Assembly: GCF_027943725.1 (NCBI RefSeq)
Contig: NZ_AP025696.1
Span: forward strand, 535,293 to 559,292
DNA: 24,000 nucleotides
Reading direction: 5' to 3'
From: Nitrosophilus kaiyonis
GTDB lineage: Bacteria > Campylobacterota > Campylobacteria > Campylobacterales > Nitratiruptoraceae
A program made the position numbers and the translations under genes. The notes under the pieces are model-generated. The model did not search any database. It had not been told where the DNA came from and saw nothing but the letters and a program-made list of their open reading frames with translations. Of this stretch, positions 7,460-22,934 are shown in pieces (the first letter of the stretch is position 1; the number at the start of each line of letters is the position of its first letter).

Positions 7460-8218
7460 ATGAATAAAAAAGAGTATAAAAAAACACTGTACTATCTACA
7501 AGTTGAACTTGTAAAATTTCAAAGCCATGTTATAAAAGAAGATATTAAAGTTTGTACAATTTTTGAAGGACGCGATGCCGCGGGGAAAGATGGAACTATA
7601 AAAAGATTTACTGAACATTTAAGCCCAAGAGATACAAGAGTTGTTGCATTAAGTAAACCTACTGAACTTGATAAAAAATATTGGTACTTTCAAAGATATA
7701 TCCACTATCTTCCTCGTGGGGGTGAGATGGTATTTTTCAATAGAAGCTGGTATAACAGGGCTGGAGTTGAAAAAGTTATGGGATTTTGCACACAAGAGCA
7801 GTATGAAAAATTTATGGAAGAGGTGCCAAATTTTGAACATTTAATAGTTCATGATGGAATGAAATTTACAAAATATTATCTTGATATTACAAAAGAAGAG
7901 CAAAAAAGAAGGCTTGATGAGAGAAAAAAAGATCCTTTAAAACAATGGAAGATAAGTCCTATAGATAAACTGGCTCAAAAACTTTGGAAAGAGTATTCAT
8001 TAGCAAGAGATGAGATGTTTGCCCGCACACATTTTGCATTTGCTCCATGGTTTGTTATTAAAGCAGATGATAAGAAAGAAGCAAGAATTAATTGTATAAA
8101 ACACTTTTTAAGCAGACAAGACTATCCAAAAAAAGATGAAAAACTACTTGTATATGATCCCAATATAGTATGTGAATTTGACAAAAGTTGCTATGAAAAA
8201 GGACTTATTGCCCCATAA
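7460..8218 (+). CDS. ppk2: polyphosphate kinase 2 family protein (single-domain PPK2), paralogue A
   Basis: Carries the PPK2 P-loop FEGRDAAGKDGTIKR, then FNRSWYNR and LKQWKISPID lid-region motifs. At 252 aa its size fits a one-domain PPK2. Confidence 0.9.
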   Translation: MNKKEYKKTLYYLQVELVKFQSHVIKEDIKVCTIFEGRDAAGKDGTIKRFTEHLSPRDTRVVALSKPTELDKKYWYFQRYIHYLPRGGEMVFFNRSWYNRAGVEKVMGFCTQEQYEKFMEEVPNFEHLIVHDGMKFTKYYLDITKEEQKRRLDERKKDPLKQWKISPIDKLAQKLWKEYSLARDEMFARTHFAFAPWFVIKADDKKEARINCIKHFLSRQDYPKKDEKLLVYDPNIVCEFDKSCYEKGLIAP

Positions 8219-11264: not shown

Positions 11265-11948
11265 TTATCCCCCTTTTAAGCTTAAATCTAAAATTTTTGC
11301 ACTTTTATACAACTTTTCATATAAAAACGAGCTTATATTAAACCATTTTTTACAATCTTTAATTATTGCACTATCACAAGTTATTACAATATCTTTTTGG
11401 TTTTTTAAAAATCTATCAACTTTATCTATTGCAACAGCCTTTATATTTAAATTCTCTTTTTTTGCTAAATCTTGAATTTTATTTGAGAGTTTTATGCTAT
11501 TGGATACTTTTTTATCAAAAACAAAAATAGCTTCTTCTGTTTCAAGAACTTTTAAAGCATTAAATAAAAACTTTATTGCTTCATCTGTTTCAAATACAAA
11601 TCTATAATTTCCGTAAACAGAACTTAAATCTCTATAGCATCCATCATAACATTTTATTATTATAGATTTTGCAAGAGCAGTTTCGGCAGTTATCAATATA
11701 TTAAATCCATCAATATAAACCTTTTTATTTTTGATAGACCTAACACCTCTTTTATATTTTATTGTAGCAGCTTTATAAAGAGCATCTCTTTGTATCGAGT
11801 ATAATTGATAATGGTTAGAAACAAAATCTATAACACTATCTTTTTTATATCCTCTTTTTATTAAAAAAATTGCATCATATACACTTTTTTTTAAATTTTC
11901 TAAATTTTTAAACAGTTTTGAAGTGTCAAAAGCTCCCCTATGCCTCAT
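11265..11948 (-). CDS. DUF434-like protein with C-terminal NYN/PIN-like domain (predicted nuclease or RNA-binding; function unknown)
   Basis: The N-terminal RGAFD...AIFLIKRGYKKDSVIDFVSNHYQL resembles DUF434 as I remember it. The C-terminal part has three acidic positions spaced as in YacP/NYN-PIN folds: VYIDGFNIL, IFVFDKK, VITCDSAI. The start overlaps the nadX stop (TAATG). Confidence 0.5.
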   Translation of the reverse strand: MRHRGAFDTSKLFKNLENLKKSVYDAIFLIKRGYKKDSVIDFVSNHYQLYSIQRDALYKAATIKYKRGVRSIKNKKVYIDGFNILITAETALAKSIIIKCYDGCYRDLSSVYGNYRFVFETDEAIKFLFNALKVLETEEAIFVFDKKVSNSIKLSNKIQDLAKKENLNIKAVAIDKVDRFLKNQKDIVITCDSAIIKDCKKWFNISSFLYEKLYKSAKILDLSLKGG

Positions 11949-13409: not shown

Positions 13410-14321
13410 CTATGCATCTATTTGAATATTTCTTCTATGATATCTTTGTACAATATCAGGGTCTGGATGGAGTGATACTTTTGCCTCCTCTTTACCCTTA
13501 TATGGTATCTGATTTAATACATATCGAATCGATTCAAGTCTTGCTAATTTTTTATTATTTGAATTTACTATGATCCATGGGCTATATGAAGTATGAGTTC
13601 TTGAGAACATCTCCTCTTTATAGTATGTTATCTTATCCCATAACTCTTGTGCTTTCATATCTACTGGGCTTAATTTCCACTGTTTTAATGGATTTTTCAT
13701 TCTCTCTTCAAATCTTTTCTTTTGTGTCTCTTTTGATATTGAAAACCAAAATTTAATAAGAATGATTCCATCATCAATTAAAGCATGTTCAATTTCTGGT
13801 ACCTCTTTCATAAATTTTTCATATTGCTCTCTTGTACAAAATCCATAAACAGGCTCGACTATAGCTCTATTGTACCAGCTTCTATCAAAAAAGGCTATTT
13901 CTCCAGGATTTGGAAGATGTTGGAAATACCTTTGAAAATAGAACTGTCCTTTTTCAACTTCAGTAGGTGCTGGAAGTGCAACAACTCTGTATTTTCTTGG
14001 ATTTAAATGCATTGTAAATCTTTTTATCGATCCACCTTTTCCTGCAGCATCACGCCCTTCAAAAATAATCATAACTCTTTTTTTATTTTCATATACCCAA
14101 TTTTGAAGTTTTATAAGCTCTATTTGAAGCTTTATTAGTTCATTTTCATATTTTACATATTCAACTGCTTTTTTTAATTTTTTCTTTTTTACCAACTGTC
14201 TAAGACCAGTTTTTGTTCTAAGTAGATGAAGCTGCTGTTCAAGGTCTTCTAATTTTTTCTTTAATTCTGGTTCTTGAATTCTCTCTTTTAAAAAATAGAG
14301 ATCTTCATATAAAGTAATCAT
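13410..14321 (-). CDS. ppk2: polyphosphate kinase 2 family protein, paralogue B (with about 50-aa extra N-terminal helical extension)
   Basis: P-loop FEGRDAAGKGGSIKR, then FDRSWYNR and LKQWKLSPVD. It aligns along its full length with paralogue A, roughly half identical by eye. A G-rich SD (AGGGGAGGA) lies directly upstream of the ATG. Confidence 0.9.
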   Translation of the reverse strand: MITLYEDLYFLKERIQEPELKKKLEDLEQQLHLLRTKTGLRQLVKKKKLKKAVEYVKYENELIKLQIELIKLQNWVYENKKRVMIIFEGRDAAGKGGSIKRFTMHLNPRKYRVVALPAPTEVEKGQFYFQRYFQHLPNPGEIAFFDRSWYNRAIVEPVYGFCTREQYEKFMKEVPEIEHALIDDGIILIKFWFSISKETQKKRFEERMKNPLKQWKLSPVDMKAQELWDKITYYKEEMFSRTHTSYSPWIIVNSNNKKLARLESIRYVLNQIPYKGKEEAKVSLHPDPDIVQRYHRRNIQIDA

Positions 14322-14361: not shown

Positions 14362-14404
14362 TCTCTTTAACAATAAAGAGAGTTAGCAAAATTAGAAGCT
14401 AACT
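14362..14404 (-). terminator. two adjacent stem-loops downstream of reverse gyrase (candidate terminator, or ppk2 5'-UTR structure)
   Basis: Hairpin 1 is tctcttta-acaa-taaagaga (14362-14381; 8-bp stem). Hairpin 2 is agttagc-(10 nt)-gctaact (14381-14404; 7-bp stem). On the minus strand hairpin 2 is followed by a moderately T-rich ctctttattgtt. Confidence 0.3.
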
Positions 14405-14468: not shown

Positions 14469-17400
14469 TTATAGATTTTTTACCTTATCATATAGATTTT
14501 TTAAAATATTTTTATAATCTATTTTCCCTTTTTCCACTTCATCCATAATACTTTCTAACTCTTTTGTATAGTTTTCATTCACAAAATAGTAAAATTTTGG
14601 ATGAGATTTAATCTCTTCATAAACCATTAAACCTTTTTTAGTGGCAAAGAGGGTTCCACCTTTTTGAAAAATATATCTTCTTTGCTGTAGCTTTTCTATT
14701 GTAATTGCATATGTTGAAGGTCTTCCAATTCCTTTTTCTTTCATCATTTTAATTATTTGCGCATAGCCGTATCTTGGAGTTTTTGAACGAGAAATAAAAC
14801 TCTTTTGAACTTCATAAACTCCCTCATTTACATTATTTATTTCAATTGGCCAAATTAAATTTATTCCATCTTTGATAATCTCTTTATAAAAACTAATTTC
14901 GCTCTCTTTATTTAAAGCTAAAACTTTAGCATATATTTCTAACACTACTGCCTCTTTCATACAAGAAGCAATAAAATTTCTAAAAATAAGATCATATAGT
15001 TTTAAGTGAGCTTGCGAAGGGAATTGGTTTTGCAATCTCATAAACTCTTCAAGCTCCTCTTTATCCATAGCTCGTGTTGGCCTAATAGCTTCATGTGCAC
15101 CCTCAAAAGACTTGTAACTTCTTGGTTTATAAAACTCTGCACCAAAATGCTCACTAATATACTCTTTTGCTATTGCAAGTCCAGCCGGGCTTACTCTTAT
15201 TGAATCTGTTCTATGGTAAGTTATAAAACCTGCTTCAAATAGATCTTGAGCAAGTTGCATTGTAAATTGTGGAGAAAAATGAAGTCTTGAAGATGCTTCA
15301 TATAACATAGCATCAGTAGAAAAAGGGACTCTAAAAAGCTCTTTTTTTTCCTCTTTTAAAAATTTAAGTTCAACTTTTTCCAAATAATTATAAAATTTTT
15401 TTGCATCATCTTTAATTTCGAAAATAAATTCTGCTTTCAATCTTTCAAATAGAGCTTCTACAACATATATTTTTTGTTTTACCTCTTTTTCTCTTAATAC
15501 TATCCACTCAAGAACAGCACTTTGAACTCTTCCTGCACTCAAACTTTTTTGATTAAACTTTTTTTGCAGATACTCTGAAATTTCAAAACCTATCCATCTA
15601 TCAGCAACACGTCTAACCAATTGTGCTTTTACTCTATTTTCATCTACCTCTCTTGCATTTTTTAAAGCATTATCAAAAGCCCATTTTGTTACTTCATGAA
15701 ATTCAGTTCTTTTTATATTGAGATTAAATGGGCGGCTATTTAAAAAAAGATCATATGCAATTTTTTCTCCCTCTGTATCCGGATCTGTTGCTATAAAAAC
15801 TTCACCTACTTCAATATCAAGCTCTCTAATAGCTTCCATAATTTTTAGCTTTGATTCATCTATTGGCTCAAAAACTTCAATAAAACCTGGCTTTGTCAAT
15901 ACACCATGAAATCCATCTTTCAATCCTAAATCAAAAACATGCCCTTTGGATGCTGTGATATTTAAAATTTTATCCTCTTTTGCTATCTCATAAACTTTTA
16001 ACCCTTTTGCCTCTCTAACTAATGGTTTACCATAAAAGTTAGCAATAGTTTTTGCTTTATTTGGAGATTCAACAATCACAAGAGCTGTTTTAAAAAAATC
16101 TTTACTCTCTTTAAAACTCCCCTGCATAGCCTTTTTTATCTTTTGACGATCACTGTCAATATCTTTTAAAATCTTTTCTATATCAACCTCATCAACTTTT
16201 TTAAACTTAATATCTTCACTAAACCATTTAACTTTTTTTTGCAAACTTTTAAAAGCTTTTTTACTATCAACTAATAAAAAGCTAAGCCCTTTTGTAAGGC
16301 CACCAGCATAAAGCCTACTTGTTCGCCCACTTGCTTGAATATAACCTGTTACATCTGCTGTTATAACTTTAAAATTTTCATTTTTAACTAATGATACATC
16401 TGGATTAGCATTTATTTTTTGAATAAAATCTTCACTCAATTTATTATAGATCCAATTGTAAATATTCTCAATTTTTTCTTTTACATTTTGCGAAAGTTTT
16501 GAAACTGGAATAAAAGCTACTTTTTTTAAATAGTTTATATTTTCTAAAGCCTCTTCAAAAAATGGCTCACTTTTAAGTGCAGGAATTAGTGCTAATAGGA
16601 AAAAATATAAAGAGGTTGGTTTTTGCAAATCAAGGCTAAATTCCAATTTTGGAACTCCAACAAAAATAGCATATCTTACAACATCTGGAAGATCTAAACC
16701 TCTTGCCAATGGATTGCGATAACTCGCAAATCCTACTACAACATCTACTTTTTTTTCCCTAAAATCTTCCTCTTTAAACTCTTCATAACTAACAGCTTTT
16801 ATACCTTTTTGATTGATAAAATTTAAATATCTATTAAGTTCATCTTTTGTTGCATTCGAAGGAAGAAATATAAGACCACCTTTTCCAAAAGCTTTTATTT
16901 TATTTATACTTTCATCCCATAAATCTTTTGGCTCTTCATATATATCTTCTATATTTCTTAAAGTAATACTTGGCCTGCTTACTTCAAAACCTAAAAGCTC
17001 TTTAAAAAGAAGGATTCTTCTGCTTTTTGGATTTGCAGTTGCACTTGATACTATAAGTATAGAGTCTCTTTTTTGAGCGATTTTTTCAATCTCGGCTCTT
17101 TTATTTTCAAACTCTTCCCAATTTATTCTTTTTTTTCTTACTAAAAGGGATTTATATTTTATAAATTCTAAAGTTTTTTGAATATCTTCATTATCAAAAC
17201 CTAAAAGCAGTAAAATTTTGTCTATATTTCTTGCCGATTTTAAAATAGAATCCACATCATCTACAAAAACAAAATCAAAAACTTTTGGAATAATTTCATA
17301 ATTTTTATATAAAAAAGGAGTTGTAGTAATTAAAATATCAAACTCACCATTTTCAATACGTTTTTTAACATCATCTTTTTCTTTTTTTGAAGCTCTTGAA

Positions 17401-17837
17401 TTATAAAAAAGAGTCTCTTCATCCATTTGCTCTAAGCGTTTATAAGCTTCTCTTGCAAGAAGAGTAGTTGGAAAAATAAGATAGCTTTTTTTGTTTTTCT
17501 TTTTTAAAAAACTTGCAACTAAAAGTCCAAAAGTGGTTTTGCCAATACCAGTAGGGGCCAATAGAGCAAATGATAAATTTAATAAAAGGCGCTTAGCCCA
17601 CATTAATTGTAGCTCTCTTGGCTCATATCCAATTTTTTCTTTAAAATATTTTTTAAACTCTTCAACCTCTTTTTGAAGTTCGCAAACTTTTAAAAAATCT
17701 CCATTTTTGAGCTCATTGCAAGGATCATTTACCTCTTTTGGTAAACATTTTTTACATACTAAGCCCTTTAAAAGCCTCTCACTGCAAATATCGCCCTTAC
17801 AATTAGGGCACATATTTTTATAAATAAGAGGTATCAC
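14469..17837 (-). CDS. rgy: reverse gyrase (helicase-like domain fused to type IA topoisomerase)
   Basis: N-terminal zinc finger CPNC...CKKC (nt 17745-17810). Helicase Walker A APTGIGKTT (nt 17532-17558) and DDVD box. TOPRIM VIVESPNKAKTI (Glu590) and ATDPDTEGE. Topo IA active-site ITYHRTDS (Tyr874). At 1122 aa the size is typical. The GTG start at 17837 has an AAGGA SD and overlaps the upstream stop (GTGA). Confidence 0.95.
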   Translation of the reverse strand: MIPLIYKNMCPNCKGDICSERLLKGLVCKKCLPKEVNDPCNELKNGDFLKVCELQKEVEEFKKYFKEKIGYEPRELQLMWAKRLLLNLSFALLAPTGIGKTTFGLLVASFLKKKNKKSYLIFPTTLLAREAYKRLEQMDEETLFYNSRASKKEKDDVKKRIENGEFDILITTTPFLYKNYEIIPKVFDFVFVDDVDSILKSARNIDKILLLLGFDNEDIQKTLEFIKYKSLLVRKKRINWEEFENKRAEIEKIAQKRDSILIVSSATANPKSRRILLFKELLGFEVSRPSITLRNIEDIYEEPKDLWDESINKIKAFGKGGLIFLPSNATKDELNRYLNFINQKGIKAVSYEEFKEEDFREKKVDVVVGFASYRNPLARGLDLPDVVRYAIFVGVPKLEFSLDLQKPTSLYFFLLALIPALKSEPFFEEALENINYLKKVAFIPVSKLSQNVKEKIENIYNWIYNKLSEDFIQKINANPDVSLVKNENFKVITADVTGYIQASGRTSRLYAGGLTKGLSFLLVDSKKAFKSLQKKVKWFSEDIKFKKVDEVDIEKILKDIDSDRQKIKKAMQGSFKESKDFFKTALVIVESPNKAKTIANFYGKPLVREAKGLKVYEIAKEDKILNITASKGHVFDLGLKDGFHGVLTKPGFIEVFEPIDESKLKIMEAIRELDIEVGEVFIATDPDTEGEKIAYDLFLNSRPFNLNIKRTEFHEVTKWAFDNALKNAREVDENRVKAQLVRRVADRWIGFEISEYLQKKFNQKSLSAGRVQSAVLEWIVLREKEVKQKIYVVEALFERLKAEFIFEIKDDAKKFYNYLEKVELKFLKEEKKELFRVPFSTDAMLYEASSRLHFSPQFTMQLAQDLFEAGFITYHRTDSIRVSPAGLAIAKEYISEHFGAEFYKPRSYKSFEGAHEAIRPTRAMDKEELEEFMRLQNQFPSQAHLKLYDLIFRNFIASCMKEAVVLEIYAKVLALNKESEISFYKEIIKDGINLIWPIEINNVNEGVYEVQKSFISRSKTPRYGYAQIIKMMKEKGIGRPSTYAITIEKLQQRRYIFQKGGTLFATKKGLMVYEEIKSHPKFYYFVNENYTKELESIMDEVEKGKIDYKNILKNLYDKVKNL

Positions 17838-18502
17838 TCTTTTCCTTGACTCAATAGAAACTCTTTAATTTCATGAAGTAAATTTGCAGGATTTTTTATA
17901 GGATAACTTAAATTTTTTGCAACATCTAAACCATCATATCCTTTTATATCTATACCTTTTAATAGATTTTCCAATTCTTGACTATTCGCAATTGGATAGC
18001 TTATACCTTTTGTATGTTTTAAAACTACATATGCCCAAGGAGCTTCACATTTAGCTGCTTTAATAACTTCACCAGCTATTTCATGACAAAATTCAAGCAT
18101 TGTTTGTGAATCTTGACCCTCTTTTACAAGTTTATATGCAAGTTTAGCAACTCCTCCAGCTGTATGCACTTTCATCTGCTGTTTTTCTTCAGAAGTTAGT
18201 TCATCAATATGCTCAATTTTATACATAGCAGCTTCAGGATCTGCTCTTAAAATATTTCTTACAGTATTTCTTGTAAGACCAACGTAATCTGCAATATCAT
18301 CTTCAGTTTTTAGATATTCCTCTCTTAAAACAATTGCAAAAGATGCTCTTGCAAGACTTGGAAGCCAAGTTAAAGTTCTAAATTCTGCAAGTTTTTTTAA
18401 TCCACCCAATAGATCAATTGCTTTATAAAAAACTCTCTCAACCAATCTTTCAACACCTTTTTCATCTATATTTAATCCGGCTCCTGTTAATACTATAGCC
18501 AT
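17834..18502 (-). CDS. HTH-containing partner protein of thermophile-type KaiC-like ATPases (near-KaiC regulatory domain-like); function unknown
   Basis: The ATG directly abuts the upstream stop (TAAATG), with AAGGAGG 5 nt upstream. A helix-turn-helix-like segment DIADYVGLTRNTVRNILR spans residues 68-86 (nt 18245-18301). The stop overlaps the rgy GTG start. The resemblance to the TIGRFAMs near-KaiC regulatory domain is from memory and needs an HMM check. Confidence 0.6.
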   Translation of the reverse strand: MAIVLTGAGLNIDEKGVERLVERVFYKAIDLLGGLKKLAEFRTLTWLPSLARASFAIVLREEYLKTEDDIADYVGLTRNTVRNILRADPEAAMYKIEHIDELTSEEKQQMKVHTAGGVAKLAYKLVKEGQDSQTMLEFCHEIAGEVIKAAKCEAPWAYVVLKHTKGISYPIANSQELENLLKGIDIKGYDGLDVAKNLSYPIKNPANLLHEIKEFLLSQGKE

Positions 18503-19390
18503 TTACGCCTCCTTGTTTTGTGATATTGGTCCCAATATTTTTACAATGCCAGTATCAGTTATTTGCATAAAATGTGTTCTTGTATCATGTCCACTCATTC
18601 TACAGCCATCTATTCTAAAAAGTCTCACTATATCACCTATATTTGCTTTATATAATTTTGCAGCATACCCACTAGTTATCAACTCTTTTGCTAAAACCAT
18701 AGTTCCATCAACTATATGTCCTACTGCAAAACCTCCAGCCGCTTCAGAGCTAAGTTCTTCATGTCCGCTTCTTTTTTGTGAAACAAAAAGTGCTGTTTGA
18801 TACCATTTTTTCATGAAATTAAAAACTCTTCTTACAATACTTCTTGCCATCATCTCTTTGTTTTCAAAAAGACCTGTTATTGAATCAATAACAGTAAATT
18901 TTATCTTATACTCTTTTATTGCAAAAGCTAATGTAGCAAGCAGGTCTGGTATATTTTCTCTAAGAGGAGTATGAGATGCAGCATCAATAACTATAATATT
19001 ATCTTCAAATTTTTTAAAATCATAGCCCATTGCTAAGGCTCTATATTTTATCGATGCTATTACAAAATTTGCAGGTGTCTCAACAGTTATAAATGCAACT
19101 TTGTTCCCTTTTCTTGCTTGCTCAACAGCAAACTGTTCTACCATTAATGATTTCCCAGTATCATTAACACCTGTTAAGTTAAATACACTATATTTAGGAA
19201 TTCCTCCTAAAGGAACCTTTTTAAGCTCATTTTTTACCTCTTTAACAGTAAAAAAAAGATCATCCAATCCCTCTATTCCAGTTGGAACACCTTCTAACTC
19301 TGGAGCCTTTTCTAAAGCTTTGCTACCAACTAAAATTCCCTCTTTTATTACTTGGGGCTCTTTATAATAGTGTTCTTCGCTTTGAGCCAT
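18503..19390 (-). CDS. single-domain KaiC/RadA-like RecA-superfamily ATPase (thermophile KaiC-domain family-like)
   Basis: TGIEGLDDLF N-terminal motif, Walker A GVNDTGKS (nt 19148-19171), FITVE catalytic Glu region, Walker B FTVIDSITGL, and C-terminal RLFRIDGCRMSGHDTRTHFMQITDTGIVKI, which is typical of KaiC-domain proteins. SD AAGGAG lies 5 nt upstream. Confidence 0.85.
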   Translation of the reverse strand: MAQSEEHYYKEPQVIKEGILVGSKALEKAPELEGVPTGIEGLDDLFFTVKEVKNELKKVPLGGIPKYSVFNLTGVNDTGKSLMVEQFAVEQARKGNKVAFITVETPANFVIASIKYRALAMGYDFKKFEDNIIVIDAASHTPLRENIPDLLATLAFAIKEYKIKFTVIDSITGLFENKEMMARSIVRRVFNFMKKWYQTALFVSQKRSGHEELSSEAAGGFAVGHIVDGTMVLAKELITSGYAAKLYKANIGDIVRLFRIDGCRMSGHDTRTHFMQITDTGIVKILGPISQNKEA

Positions 19391-19417
19391 ATCTGCTCCT
19401 TTAGCATATTTTAAAAG

Positions 19418-19426
19418 ATTATAACA
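19418..19426 (-). promoter_or_regulatory. candidate extended -10 promoter TGTTATAAT for the kaiC-like/HTH/rgy unit
   Basis: The reverse complement of attataaca is TGTTATAAT. It lies 27 nt upstream of the ATG at 19390, followed by SD AAGGAG (19396-19401). It is the only intergenic space (73 bp) upstream of the three coupled genes. Confidence 0.4.
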
Positions 19427-19463
19427 AAATTATGTTTTAAGTAAAGCTACAAAAGTATCATTT

Positions 19464-22400
19464 TCATTTTTTTCCAAATCCACCTCCACCTGGAGTTTTT
19501 ATAACAAGCCTATCAAACTTTTTTACTTTAATAGATGCTTTTGATGTTAAATTATAAATTTTTTTATCTCTAATTAATAGATTCTCTCCTTTTTTACCAT
19601 CTTCTCCACCATCCATTCCATAAGGAGAAAATACTCTTCTCTCAGTTAAAATAGATAAATTTAAAGCTTTTAAAAACTCAAACTCTCTAACTACCCCTTC
19701 TCCTCCTTTGTGTTTTCCCTCTCCTCCACTATTTTTTCTTAATTCAAACCTTTTAATTTTTACAGGATAGTTTCTTTCCAAAACTTCAACATCAGTTATT
19801 TTTGTATTTGTCATATGGGTATGAACACCATCTGCTCCATCACTATTTTTAGTTGCTCCTGCTCCTCCTGCTATAGTTTCATAATATCCAAAACTATCAT
19901 CTCCAAAAATGATATTATTCATACACCCTTGACTTGCTCCAGATACCTTAAAAGCTTTAAAAATTACATCTACAACTCTTTGTGATGTAGTAACATTGCC
20001 ACCTACAATAGCGCTATCAGAAGATGGATTTAAAATCGAATTTTCATCTACCAATATTTTAATTGGTTTTATAATTCCTTCATTTAAAGGAATATCCTCA
20101 TTTAACATAACTCTAATAGAATAAATTACCGCAGATTTAACAACTGAAAATGGTGTATTTTGATTTGATATAAGCTCATAAGAAGAACCCCTAAAATCAA
20201 AAACTGCATTTCCAAAATTATCAATTTCTACTTTTAATTTTATAGCTGCTCCATTATCTAAATAGTCTTGAGCCATAAAAATTTTCTCTTTTAAATTTTT
20301 AAAAAAATCTCTAACCTTTTTTTCACTTATCTCTTGAATCTTTTTCATATACCAAAAAACTTTTTCTTCATTTTCTTCAATCAACTCTTTTACACCCTCA
20401 ATTCCAGCCATATTTGCACTAATTTGAGCTTTTATATCACTTATATTATCTTCAATATTTCTAGCCCCTGCACTTTCAAATATCGCTCTTAATACACTCT
20501 CTTTAAACTCTTTATCCTCTACAACCTCAAAAGCTTCAATAATTGCTCCCTCTTCATGTAGGTTTTTTGAAAAAGGTGGCATGCTACCAGGTGTTATCCC
20601 TCCAATATCTGCATGGTGCCCTCTACTTGCCACCCAAAATAGAACCTCCCTTTTGTTCGAAGTCCCACTTCGAACAAAAGGGGTTATTACTGTAATATCA
20701 GGAAGATGCGAGCCTCCTTCATATGGAACATTTGTTATGAAACTAACATTTTTGCTTCTAAATTTTCCTTCAAACTTTTTTATAATAGATTTCACAACAC
20801 TGCTCATTGAGCCAAGATGCACCGGTATATGGGGAGCATTTGAGATTAGATTTCCATCTTTATCAAAAATTGCACAAGAAAAATCCAATCTCTCTTTTAT
20901 ATTTGTAGATACTGCAGTCTTTTGTAAAATCTCTCCCATTTTTGTAGCAATAAATTTAAATCTATTGGATAAAAGAGATATCTCAACCTCTTTAATTTTC
21001 TCCTTCTCTTTTAAATCTTCAAGCTCAATATGAATATCCCCATAATCATCTATCTTTGCATAACTCTTTTCATCAAGAAGTATGGTTGAGCTTTCTTGAA
21101 TTATTAAAGCAGGCCCTTCTATTTTCAATTGTGGAGATATCTCTTTATAAACTTTAGCCTTTTGCCATTTACCATTTAAGAAAATCTCTTTCTCTTTGAC
21201 AGGTTTTACATCTTTTTTTCTTAACTTTTTTCTATTTAAAACTTTGCTTTTTTTAATAAAATCTATCTTTATAGATTCAACTATAACCTCTTTTTTTAGT
21301 AAAAATCCAAAAATCTTTTTATGTTTTTCGCAAAAATCATCAAAAAAATTATCTTTATATTCAACCTCTATAATATTTTGTGTTCCTTCATACTTTAATA
21401 ATAGACTCTTTTTTATCTCATCGGCGCTATCTTTAAAACTGTTAAACTCTTTTTCTAAATCTATCTCTTTTACTCTTTTATCAAAACTTTTCTGATATGT
21501 TTTTACAATATCTGCATTTGCTATGCCAATGGCTGATAATATTCCTGAATCTTTATGTATATAAATCTTTTTTATTCCAAGTTTTCTTGCTACTCCAACA
21601 GCATGCTGTCCACCTGCTCCTCCAAAAGAGCAAAGAATATGATTTTTTACATCTATCCCTTTTTTAATTGTTATCTCTTTTATAGCATTTGCCATATTTT
21701 CATTTGCCACATCTATAAAGCCTTCAGCTATCTCTTCAATGCTTTTATTTATCTTTTTTGATAACTTTTCAAAACCCTCTTTAGCAGCTTTTATATTCAA
21801 TGGTTCATTTTGATTTTTACCAAATATTTTTGGGAAAAAATCAACTTCAAGTCTTTGAGTTACTAAATTTGCATCAGTAATACTCAAATACCCATTTTTC
21901 CCATAGCAAAGTGGCCCTGGATTGCTTCCTGAACTCTCAGGCCCAACAACAAACATCTCATTTTTATAAAAAAGTCTACTTCCTCCACCAGCTGCAACTG
22001 TATGAATATCTACACTTGGAACTGCTACCTTAACTCCTGCAATCTCATCATAATATTTTAATTCAACTTTACCATCATATCTACTAACATCTGTACTTGT
22101 TCCACCCATATCAAAACCTATTAAAGGAGTGCCTTTATATATGGATTTTAAAGCAACAACACCTCCTGCAGGACCACTTAATAGTGCAACACTTCCTCTA
22201 AAATCTTCACTTTTACAAAGATTTCCATCTGATTTCATAAAATACAATTTATTTAAATCACCTTTGAAATTTTTCACTATATTTTTTATGTATCTTTTTA
22301 AAACAGGAGTCAAATATGCATCTACTACAGCAGTATCTCCTCTTTCAACGGCCTTTGTTGAAGATGAGACTTCACTTGATATTGATATATTTTCTATTTT

Positions 22401-22934
22401 ATTTTTTATAGCTAACTCTTTAACTCTTTTTTCATGCTTATCAAATCCATATGAATGCAAAAACAAAACTGCTAAAGATTTTATATCTTTAAATTCAATA
22501 TTTTCATCCAACTCTTTTAAAACTTCAAAATAGCCATCTTCTGGATATACTCTCTCATCTATCTCAACTACTTTTTTATATAAAGGTTTTGGTTTTTTAA
22601 TATCAAGAACAAAAATATCTTCTCTATTTTGATAACCAATTTTCAGTAAATCTTTAAATCCTTTTGTAATAAAAAGAGTAACATCTTCTCCATTTCTCTC
22701 AAGAAGAGCATTTGTTGCAACAGTAGTCCCAAATCTTATCCATTCAAAATCTTCTAAATCTATTAATTCAGGTTTTTTATTAAAAATCTCTTTTAAAATA
22801 AGTCTAATTCCCTCACTATTTGAGTCTTCATAATGCTCACTCTCACTTAAAATCTTTTTTACATAAACTTTTCCATTATAGTTTGCATAAATATCAGTAA
22901 ATGTTCCTCCCCTATCAATTGCAATTTTTAACAT
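19464..22934 (-). CDS. fused hydantoinase A/B family protein, 5-oxoprolinase (ATP-hydrolysing)-like
   Basis: The 1156-aa protein starts with the HyuA N-terminus MLKIAIDRGGTFTDIY. The C-terminal half carries the HyuB signature TAVSTNIKERLDFSCAIFDKDGNLISNAPHIPVHLGSM. This is the fused architecture of the eukaryote-type OPLAH family. Confidence 0.85.
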   Translation of the reverse strand: MLKIAIDRGGTFTDIYANYNGKVYVKKILSESEHYEDSNSEGIRLILKEIFNKKPELIDLEDFEWIRFGTTVATNALLERNGEDVTLFITKGFKDLLKIGYQNREDIFVLDIKKPKPLYKKVVEIDERVYPEDGYFEVLKELDENIEFKDIKSLAVLFLHSYGFDKHEKRVKELAIKNKIENISISSEVSSSTKAVERGDTAVVDAYLTPVLKRYIKNIVKNFKGDLNKLYFMKSDGNLCKSEDFRGSVALLSGPAGGVVALKSIYKGTPLIGFDMGGTSTDVSRYDGKVELKYYDEIAGVKVAVPSVDIHTVAAGGGSRLFYKNEMFVVGPESSGSNPGPLCYGKNGYLSITDANLVTQRLEVDFFPKIFGKNQNEPLNIKAAKEGFEKLSKKINKSIEEIAEGFIDVANENMANAIKEITIKKGIDVKNHILCSFGGAGGQHAVGVARKLGIKKIYIHKDSGILSAIGIANADIVKTYQKSFDKRVKEIDLEKEFNSFKDSADEIKKSLLLKYEGTQNIIEVEYKDNFFDDFCEKHKKIFGFLLKKEVIVESIKIDFIKKSKVLNRKKLRKKDVKPVKEKEIFLNGKWQKAKVYKEISPQLKIEGPALIIQESSTILLDEKSYAKIDDYGDIHIELEDLKEKEKIKEVEISLLSNRFKFIATKMGEILQKTAVSTNIKERLDFSCAIFDKDGNLISNAPHIPVHLGSMSSVVKSIIKKFEGKFRSKNVSFITNVPYEGGSHLPDITVITPFVRSGTSNKREVLFWVASRGHHADIGGITPGSMPPFSKNLHEEGAIIEAFEVVEDKEFKESVLRAIFESAGARNIEDNISDIKAQISANMAGIEGVKELIEENEEKVFWYMKKIQEISEKKVRDFFKNLKEKIFMAQDYLDNGAAIKLKVEIDNFGNAVFDFRGSSYELISNQNTPFSVVKSAVIYSIRVMLNEDIPLNEGIIKPIKILVDENSILNPSSDSAIVGGNVTTSQRVVDVIFKAFKVSGASQGCMNNIIFGDDSFGYYETIAGGAGATKNSDGADGVHTHMTNTKITDVEVLERNYPVKIKRFELRKNSGGEGKHKGGEGVVREFEFLKALNLSILTERRVFSPYGMDGGEDGKKGENLLIRDKKIYNLTSKASIKVKKFDRLVIKTPGGGGFGKK

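Follow-up and report, generated by a model that had tools for sequence, protein, structure and literature searches.

Why should a KaiC-like ATPase and a small helix-turn-helix (HTH) protein stand directly before the gene for reverse gyrase (rgy)? The question is raised by a stretch of 24,000 nucleotides (nt) from Nitrosophilus kaiyonis (contig NZ_AP025696.1, positions 535,293 to 559,292; hereafter the window), on whose minus strand three consecutive open reading frames (ORFs) encode, in this order, a KaiC-like ATPase, an HTH partner and reverse gyrase. Reverse gyrase is the hallmark DNA enzyme of thermophiles, and rgy is the single gene whose presence goes with life at very high temperature; to our knowledge, little is known about its control, and no dedicated partner or regulator of it is known in bacteria. 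We find that this triad is kept or re-formed in several bacterial and archaeal thermophile lineages, and we tentatively read its first two products as an ATP-driven sensor-regulator controlling the operon that carries rgy, a reading to which we give slightly less than an even chance. The three genes are:

18503..19390, minus strand: single-domain KaiC-like ATPase of 295 amino acids (aa), family thermo_KaiC_2 (TIGR03878, Pfam PF06745)
17834..18502, minus strand: KaiC-associated regulatory-domain protein, the HTH partner, 222 aa (TIGR03879)
14469..17837, minus strand: reverse gyrase (rgy), 1122 aa, GTG start (TIGR01054, Pfam domains)

Two sets of loci, numbered here with the prefix L, were searched with the three window proteins and with ORF calls made for this analysis: the best 80 loci from a one-genome-per-species scan, in which 481 of 185,579 genomes held a relative of the partner, and the best 80 of 302 loci from a metagenome scan seeded with distant, archaeal-type partners. 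In these two samples, whose counts are not unbiased frequencies, rgy directly adjoins the ATPase-partner pair in 37 of the 146 loci having enough flank, and these loci fall, when partners are grouped at 80% identity, in 15 of 49 lineages, or at 70% in 9 of 22; no other family of neighbours is found beside the pair in more than 4 of the 49 or 2 of the 22. The co-directional order ATPase-partner-rgy occurs in ten genomes of the Nitratiruptoraceae clade, among them the complete genome of Nitratiruptor sp. SB155-2, where the triad has a 4-nt overlap and the flanking genes are different, and in metagenome-assembled genomes (MAGs) of the Persephonella clade. In three Hydrogenothermaceae genomes rgy is divergent from the ATPase gene across an intergenic region of about 55-110 nt, and the divergent loci (L060, L061, L074 and L140) comprise Hydrogenothermaceae and one archaeon. 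Among the 80 archaeal-type loci, rgy lies immediately downstream and co-directional in 19, divergent in 1, convergent in 1 and 5 kb away in 1; by matching to named proteins, the linked loci belong to Bathyarchaeota-like, Thermoplasmata-like (a Thermoplasmatales MAG) and unassigned archaea, and in a Bathyarchaeota contig the triad is directly visible in the called genes. Flanking genes vary by lineage, and the triad alone is conserved. A reading of the window made from its letters, without database searches (the sequence-only reading), had staked its proposal on conservation of this neighbourhood in other genomes, and the neighbourhood proved to be conserved in two bacterial phyla and several archaeal lineages.

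At least three subfamilies of reverse gyrase are involved, and the linkage therefore arose or was kept several times. Type i, in Nitratiruptoraceae and Persephonella (48-68% mutual identity), stands with a bacterial-type pair in co-directional order; type ii, in Hydrogenothermaceae, is only about 41% identical and is divergent from a bacterial-type pair; type iii, the main archaeal type (36-40% identity), accompanies an archaeal-type pair. A fourth independent event is L131, in which an archaeal-type pair stands with a type i rgy. On the partner tree the linked groups form separate clades with unlinked relatives between them, and partner identity correlates with rgy identity (r = 0.85).

The L131 contig (L131:7065-12073) carries an archaeal-type TrpE, and its pair joins the Nitratiruptor/Persephonella-type rgy by a 4-nt overlap; this rgy is 45-50% identical to that type versus 36-38% to the others. 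The contig is probably archaeal, and the arrangement suggests that the pair recombined with a transferred rgy.

Database profiles bear out the two small-protein families that the sequence-only reading had named. The ATPase scores 447.9 bits against TIGR03878 (thermo_KaiC_2; cut-off 232.2), with residues 32-290 on profile positions 1-259 of 259, and holds one Pfam PF06745 domain (residues 35-283, 7.5e-56). Its Walker A motif G..DTGKS, the glutamate of TVE.PA and the Walker B motif IDS.TG are kept in at least 95% of 124 family members. Among solved structures, those of KaiC, PH0284 and the RadA paralogue SSO2452 are closest to it, and in NCBIfam the protein is closer to the KaiC and ArlH families than to RadA/RadB (68 versus about 30 bits). 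Its gene abuts that of the near_KaiC_dom partner in the window, and the two genes are adjacent in most of about 160 related loci, Aquificaceae excepted. When matched against the anti-phage defence models of PADLOC, neither the ATPase nor the partner gave a match.

The partner scores 127 bits against TIGR03879 (near_KaiC_dom; cut-off 65.1) over residues 30-129 and is 100% identical to a Nitrosophilus kaiyonis protein, from a vent campylobacterotan of the Nitratiruptor group. Its AlphaFold2 model (pLDDT 88) is almost all helical, with an N-terminal helical domain that contains an HTH at about residues 67-86 (helices 67-74 and 78-86) and a separate C-terminal domain of unknown fold. The HTH resembles sigma-70 region 4; Pfam gave sub-threshold Crp and HTH_23 matches, and PDB profile matches to HTH segments were weak. 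We found no solved structure resembling the whole partner, the best, weak Foldseek match being the HTH domain of ParB (E 0.5). From the model, the partner is predicted to be a DNA-binding regulator with an HTH. Its family is small, with 106 clusters at 50% identity among 1.84 billion representatives. Some relatives are longer: P0121, P0129, P0132 and P0137 carry at least two near_KaiC domains each, in tandem and in proteins of up to 408 aa, and such tandem relatives, some with two or three domains, are reminiscent of multi-HTH DNA-binding proteins. We also considered whether longer relatives fuse ATPase and partner, and rejected this: each is either a tandem of partner domains or an unrelated radical-SAM fusion.

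The third protein scores 1202 bits against TIGR01054 (cut-off 471.7; aligned 1-1121) and has the zinc finger, helicase-like, Toprim and topoisomerase IA architecture (Pfam zf_Rg, DEAD, Toprim, Topoisom_bac), which points to a full-length reverse gyrase of 1122 aa, predicted to introduce positive supercoils.

How tightly are the three genes joined? At the first junction, TAAATG, the ATPase stop TAA (18505-18503) abuts the partner ATG (18502-18500) with a gap of 0 nt; at the second, GTGA, the rgy start GTG (17837-17835) overlaps the partner stop TGA (17836-17834), a spacing of -4 nt. Direct reading of ORFs, junction letters and Shine-Dalgarno motifs confirmed in every respect the earlier description of three same-strand genes with no intergenic space. 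The signals are:

19396..19402, minus strand: Shine-Dalgarno AAAGGAG of the KaiC-like gene (direct reading; GGAG core conserved in the upstream alignment)
18508..18514, minus strand: Shine-Dalgarno AAGGAGG of the partner gene, within the 3' end of the ATPase gene (direct reading)
17843..17847, minus strand: AAGGA ribosome-binding site of rgy, within the partner gene (direct reading)
17834..17837, minus strand: GTGA overlap of rgy start and partner stop (direct reading)

The GTG start proposed for rgy is likewise supported: residues 1-50 align to positions 1-49 of the 49-position zf_Rg profile, the TIGR01054 alignment begins at position 1, and the combination of an M-I-P N-terminus with overlap of start and partner stop is seen again in homologues from bacteria and archaea. 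The same -4 overlap is present in L009-L012, L014, L024, L030, L131, L133, L155, L157 and L176, and the distance from partner stop to rgy start varies by clade as follows:

Nitratiruptoraceae and several archaeal loci: -4 nt
Thermoplasmata-like loci: -8 nt
Bathyarchaeota-like loci: -1 to +12 nt
Persephonella clade: 52-64 nt

Judged by these spacings, predicted translational coupling of partner and rgy is common, yet not universal. Tight packing is also ordinary, since 12 of the window's 19 junctions between same-strand genes are overlaps or leave at most 2 nt, and at other loci the partner sits just as close to pyruvate kinase, a TamB-like gene or Hjc. The proposal that the 4-nt overlap signals stoichiometric co-production has fared poorly: such overlaps are the norm in this genome, the partner shares a 4-nt overlap with pyruvate kinase in Nautiliaceae, and in the Persephonella clade a terminator hairpin lies between partner and rgy.

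Signals at the two ends of the triad are:

19418..19445, minus strand: promoter-like element with -35-like TTTACT (19445-19440), 16-nt spacer and extended -10 TGTTATAAT (19426-19418) (scan and conservation)
14382..14403, minus strand: weak hairpin GTTAGC-N10-GCTAAC, 66 nt past the rgy stop, with a T-rich stretch after it (direct reading)

The promoter-like element sits in the 73-nt gap 19391-19463, upstream of the KaiC-like gene, and was scored at 10 of 12 matches plus TG. Sigma-70-like matches across the region show no excess overall (28 versus 26.5 in shuffles), and it is therefore conservation, and not the scan, that supports calling this element a promoter: eight loci of the Nitratiruptoraceae clade share TGnTATAAT without change and similarly far from the start codon, and the spacing to the ribosome-binding site is about 8-10 nt in seven of the eight and about 15 nt in the window. 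Of its three occurrences in the window, the sole one on the minus strand is TGTTATAAT at 19418-19426, in agreement with the earlier remark that the only obvious promoter-like element lies in the gap upstream of the KaiC-like gene. Inside the triad, the scan gave three terminator-like matches on the minus strand within the ATPase and partner genes, each with just 3 G-C pairs, and a fourth, inside rgy, with 3 of 6 pairs G-C. The hairpin at 14382..14403, which is not among the terminator-scan matches, is with low confidence a possible operon end. Taken together, the sequence supports reading the three genes as one compact transcription unit in Nitrosophilus kaiyonis. In the Persephonella clade the gap between partner and rgy holds a canonical intrinsic terminator, a GCGGGC hairpin with a seven-U run (L001:8654-8718, also L019, L020, L021 and L022), about 20-30 nt before the rgy start codon, with -15 to -21 kcal/mol and z-scores of -3 to -5; there, rgy may depend on conditional read-through.

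The other genes of the window are housekeeping genes: an ABC-2 transporter, TrkAH, two PPK2, a radical SAM protein and aspartate dehydrogenase. Directly upstream of the triad is a fused hydantoinase/oxoprolinase A+B gene (1156 aa; 19464-22934, minus strand), which holds the same position in L016, L024 and L030, with a related gene near that of L011; the triad of Nitratiruptor sp. SB155-2 stands without it. The polyphosphate kinase 2 (PPK2) genes are at 7460-8218 (plus strand) and 13410-14321 (minus strand), one of them directly downstream of rgy, and a PPK2 gene lies near the pair in L092 as well. A DUF434/DUF5616 protein is encoded at 11265-11948 (minus strand), in the same-strand gene string downstream of rgy.

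What does the pair do where reverse gyrase is not beside it? The pair lacks rgy in the large Archaeoglobus group (e.g. Archaeoglobus profundus), and bacterial loci without rgy within 10 kb come from Nautiliaceae, Thermodesulfobacteria, Aquificaceae and many other Hydrogenothermaceae. In 57 of 103 non-rgy loci the pair is a self-contained bicistron followed by a convergent gene. Since the pair is so often without rgy nearby, it is unlikely to be an obligate reverse gyrase subunit. In Nautiliaceae (L007:7153-10033; L040-L043, L050, L053, L056, L066) the genes for partner and pyruvate kinase overlap by 1 or 4 nt, with DAHP synthase upstream. In Thermodesulfobacteria (L062, L063, L068, L083; e.g. 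L063:9052-14172) a same-strand SMC gene of 1130-1154 aa follows the pair; in Thermodesulfobacterium, weak rgy-like matches some 9 kb upstream begin at Toprim and were set aside as topoisomerase I. In Aquificaceae (L064, L067, L071, L073, L078, L080, L084) no adjacent KaiC-like gene was detected by tblastn at E 1e-8 or better; five of these loci share a block of ribosomal protein S1, HU, partner, TamB-like protein and RecG (e.g. L073:9455-16388), and in L067 and L071 the partner and TamB-like genes are separated by a 91-aa ORF.

Several neighbours belong to DNA transactions. RecG is directly upstream of the pair in Sulfurihydrogenibium (L082:6604-9009) and two genes off in Nautilia lithotrophica (L005:2740-4521) and Aquificaceae (L073:14028-16388); Hjc is directly downstream in an archaeon (L093:7623-7994); and RuvABC is two genes downstream, with QueH between, in a Deferribacteres MAG (L089:9172-11182). 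A general DNA-repair theme was rejected, as it holds in some bacterial lineages only and the archaeal non-rgy neighbours of the pair are unrelated housekeeping genes; we keep these neighbours solely for the accessory role weighed below. Nautilia lithotrophica (L005, GCA_054656815.1) carries the pair and was reported negative for rgy by polymerase chain reaction (PMC2628731); if its genome is truly without rgy, the pair must have another client. In the sampled data both families appear confined to thermophile lineages; judged by source names, nearly all are lineages or MAG bins of vents or hot springs, and two weak short relatives come from Thiohalomonadaceae MAGs.

The known systems nearest to the triad help to delimit what the pair could be. 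As a pair it matches the TIGR03878/TIGR03879 catalogue: the two window proteins clear the curated cut-offs by a wide margin and their genes are neighbours, as the definition of the families leads one to expect, and NCBI names the near_KaiC_dom protein 'KaiC associated regulatory domain-containing protein'. The window triad differs by a recurrent third gene, rgy; the catalogue entry presumably gives neither a function nor a link to reverse gyrase. Makarova, Galperin and Koonin are said to have proposed in 2017 that KaiC-like ATPases are signal-transduction hubs in archaea (cited in PMC5847659). The likeness lies in a single-domain ATPase beside a small putative DNA-binding output protein, with a predicted logic of ATPase state in and transcription out; unlike the proteins of that proposal, the window subfamily is also bacterial and is tied to one identifiable client gene. 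With cyanobacterial KaiABC the ATPase shares a homologous fold (the best PDB sequence matches are KaiC, E down to 5e-16), but it has one KaiC domain in 295 aa, not two in about 500 aa, its partner is an HTH protein unrelated to KaiB, and its host is a non-photosynthetic vent bacterium. A circadian clock was accordingly rejected: the ATPase scores 31.6 bits against circ_KaiC (cut-off 546) and has one domain, and no KaiA or KaiB family was found among the window genes scanned. The aRadC-type RadA paralogue SSO2452 (PDB 2w0m; E 4.9e-11) is a single-domain RecA-superfamily ATPase of similar size and, through gene neighbours, may share a link to DNA transactions with the window ATPase, which nonetheless scores nearer KaiC/ArlH than RadA/RadB.

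A further parallel is found in Pyrococcus furiosus, where the KaiC-domain protein PF1931 and the adjacent predicted regulator PF1932 are strongly heat-induced targets of the heat-shock regulator Phr (PMC10746257). There too a KaiC-domain gene stands beside a predicted transcription regulator in a hyperthermophile, but adjacency to reverse gyrase is not reported in that paper. PF1931/PF1932 is probably a sister pair, thermo_KaiC_1 with a short partner, and its heat-shock link is a lead only; a profile search of the short partner family aimed at PF1932 returned 18 proteins, none from Thermococcales.

We infer the following mechanism for the conserved linkage. The ATPase and its partner would form a two-protein sensor-regulator in which the ATPase, of RecA fold and probably a hexamer, senses some physical or metabolic condition through ATP turnover, most plausibly temperature, otherwise DNA or energy status, and thereby alters the DNA binding of the HTH partner. 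The partner would control the promoter before its own operon, and the same switch would govern the output of rgy as third cistron or divergent neighbour; in genomes with rgy at another site, the pair would work in trans or have other targets. We favour this sensor-regulator because the partner has a predicted DNA-binding fold, because co-directional and divergent geometries both occur, as is typical of a regulator and its target, because the pair is an autonomous bicistron in many genomes, and because the terminator before rgy in Persephonella fits read-through control and not fixed stoichiometry. The intact ATPase motifs and the conserved operon promoter also speak for it. Heat enters the argument through Nautilia profundicola, a related bacterium in which rgy is induced more than 100-fold by heat (PMC2628731); this group must therefore possess some regulator of rgy that responds to heat. 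Several observations weigh on the other side. The pair is not beside rgy in about three quarters of the sampled loci. The partner is 65-70% identical between Campylobacterota and Aquificota and about 40% identical between bacteria and archaea, an unusual degree of conservation if it is a transcription factor that acts locally. A search for operator palindromes shared among 42 lineages before the ATPase gene returned nothing above shuffles.

The main rival to the regulator is an accessory role, in which ATPase and partner would work on DNA in physical contact with reverse gyrase, loading it, recruiting it or modulating its activity, and the operon would ensure co-production; recruitment would be to damaged or unwound DNA, by analogy with RecA/Rad51 paralogues that work with enzymes of the RecQ-Top3 type. 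We consider this unlikely, if still a serious candidate. It draws on the tight junction of partner and rgy (overlap of 4 or 8 nt, or a gap of at most 12 nt) in Nitratiruptoraceae and three archaeal clades, on an ATPase of the RecA superfamily that matches SSO2452 about as well as KaiC, and on neighbours such as RecG (three lineages), SMC, HU, Hjc and RuvABC. High conservation of the partner across phyla, which counted against a local regulator, is what contact with conserved partners would predict, and the best, weak fold match is a ParB DNA-binding domain. Yet the pair is more often away from rgy than beside it, typically as the bicistron with a convergent gene behind it; divergent and convergent arrangements occur; a terminator separates partner from rgy in Persephonella; close overlaps are common throughout these genomes, the one between partner and pyruvate kinase included; and no fusion of partner or ATPase with rgy or with each other was seen. 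The sequence-only reading had offered both possibilities, an accessory or loader complex and an autoregulating sensor; wide conservation of the linkage supports it in part, and an obligate accessory subunit is improbable.

The pair could instead serve thermophiles as a general module for signalling or housekeeping, with no direct link in function to reverse gyrase; the two would then be useful only at high temperature and hence co-expressed and co-transferred as a small thermoadaptation cassette. The apparent restriction of both families to thermophile lineages in the sampled data fits such a cassette, as do the horizontal transfer of bacterial rgy (PMC6878951), the correlation of partner and rgy identities, consistent with joint inheritance or transfer, and the many lineages in which the pair stands beside unrelated genes. 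A cassette does not, however, predict that the linkage re-forms with three rgy subfamilies in three geometries, and no other thermophile-linked gene recurs beside the pair; we think this explanation improbable. Chance adjacency within one compact genome has in its favour that tight same-strand packing is the rule in the window, but adjacency in 15 of 49 partner lineages and two domains of life refutes it: with about 1,700 genes and two flanking positions, our own arithmetic gives about 0.001 per independent lineage and less than 1e-6 for four events, and we assign chance a very small share.

What is new is the linkage of rgy to a KaiC-like ATPase and its putative HTH output protein, the pair itself being already catalogued in NCBIfam. 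The sequence-only reading knew of no functional description of such a unit, and our full-text literature searches (family names; reverse gyrase with KaiC) likewise found no linkage or function described, although the 2017 article by Makarova and colleagues may mention it. One further, rather doubtful view is that the two proteins are dedicated cofactors, an ATP-driven DNA-binding complex that would recruit or gate the enzyme at melted or damaged DNA; if it were true, reverse gyrase would be the catalytic part of a three-protein thermoprotection machine in bacteria and archaea. The triad gives a concrete candidate for the missing control or helper of reverse gyrase and a first biological context for two protein families catalogued without function. 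As the carriers Nitratiruptor sp. SB155-2 and Nitrosophilus kaiyonis are named strains, experiments on it may be feasible.

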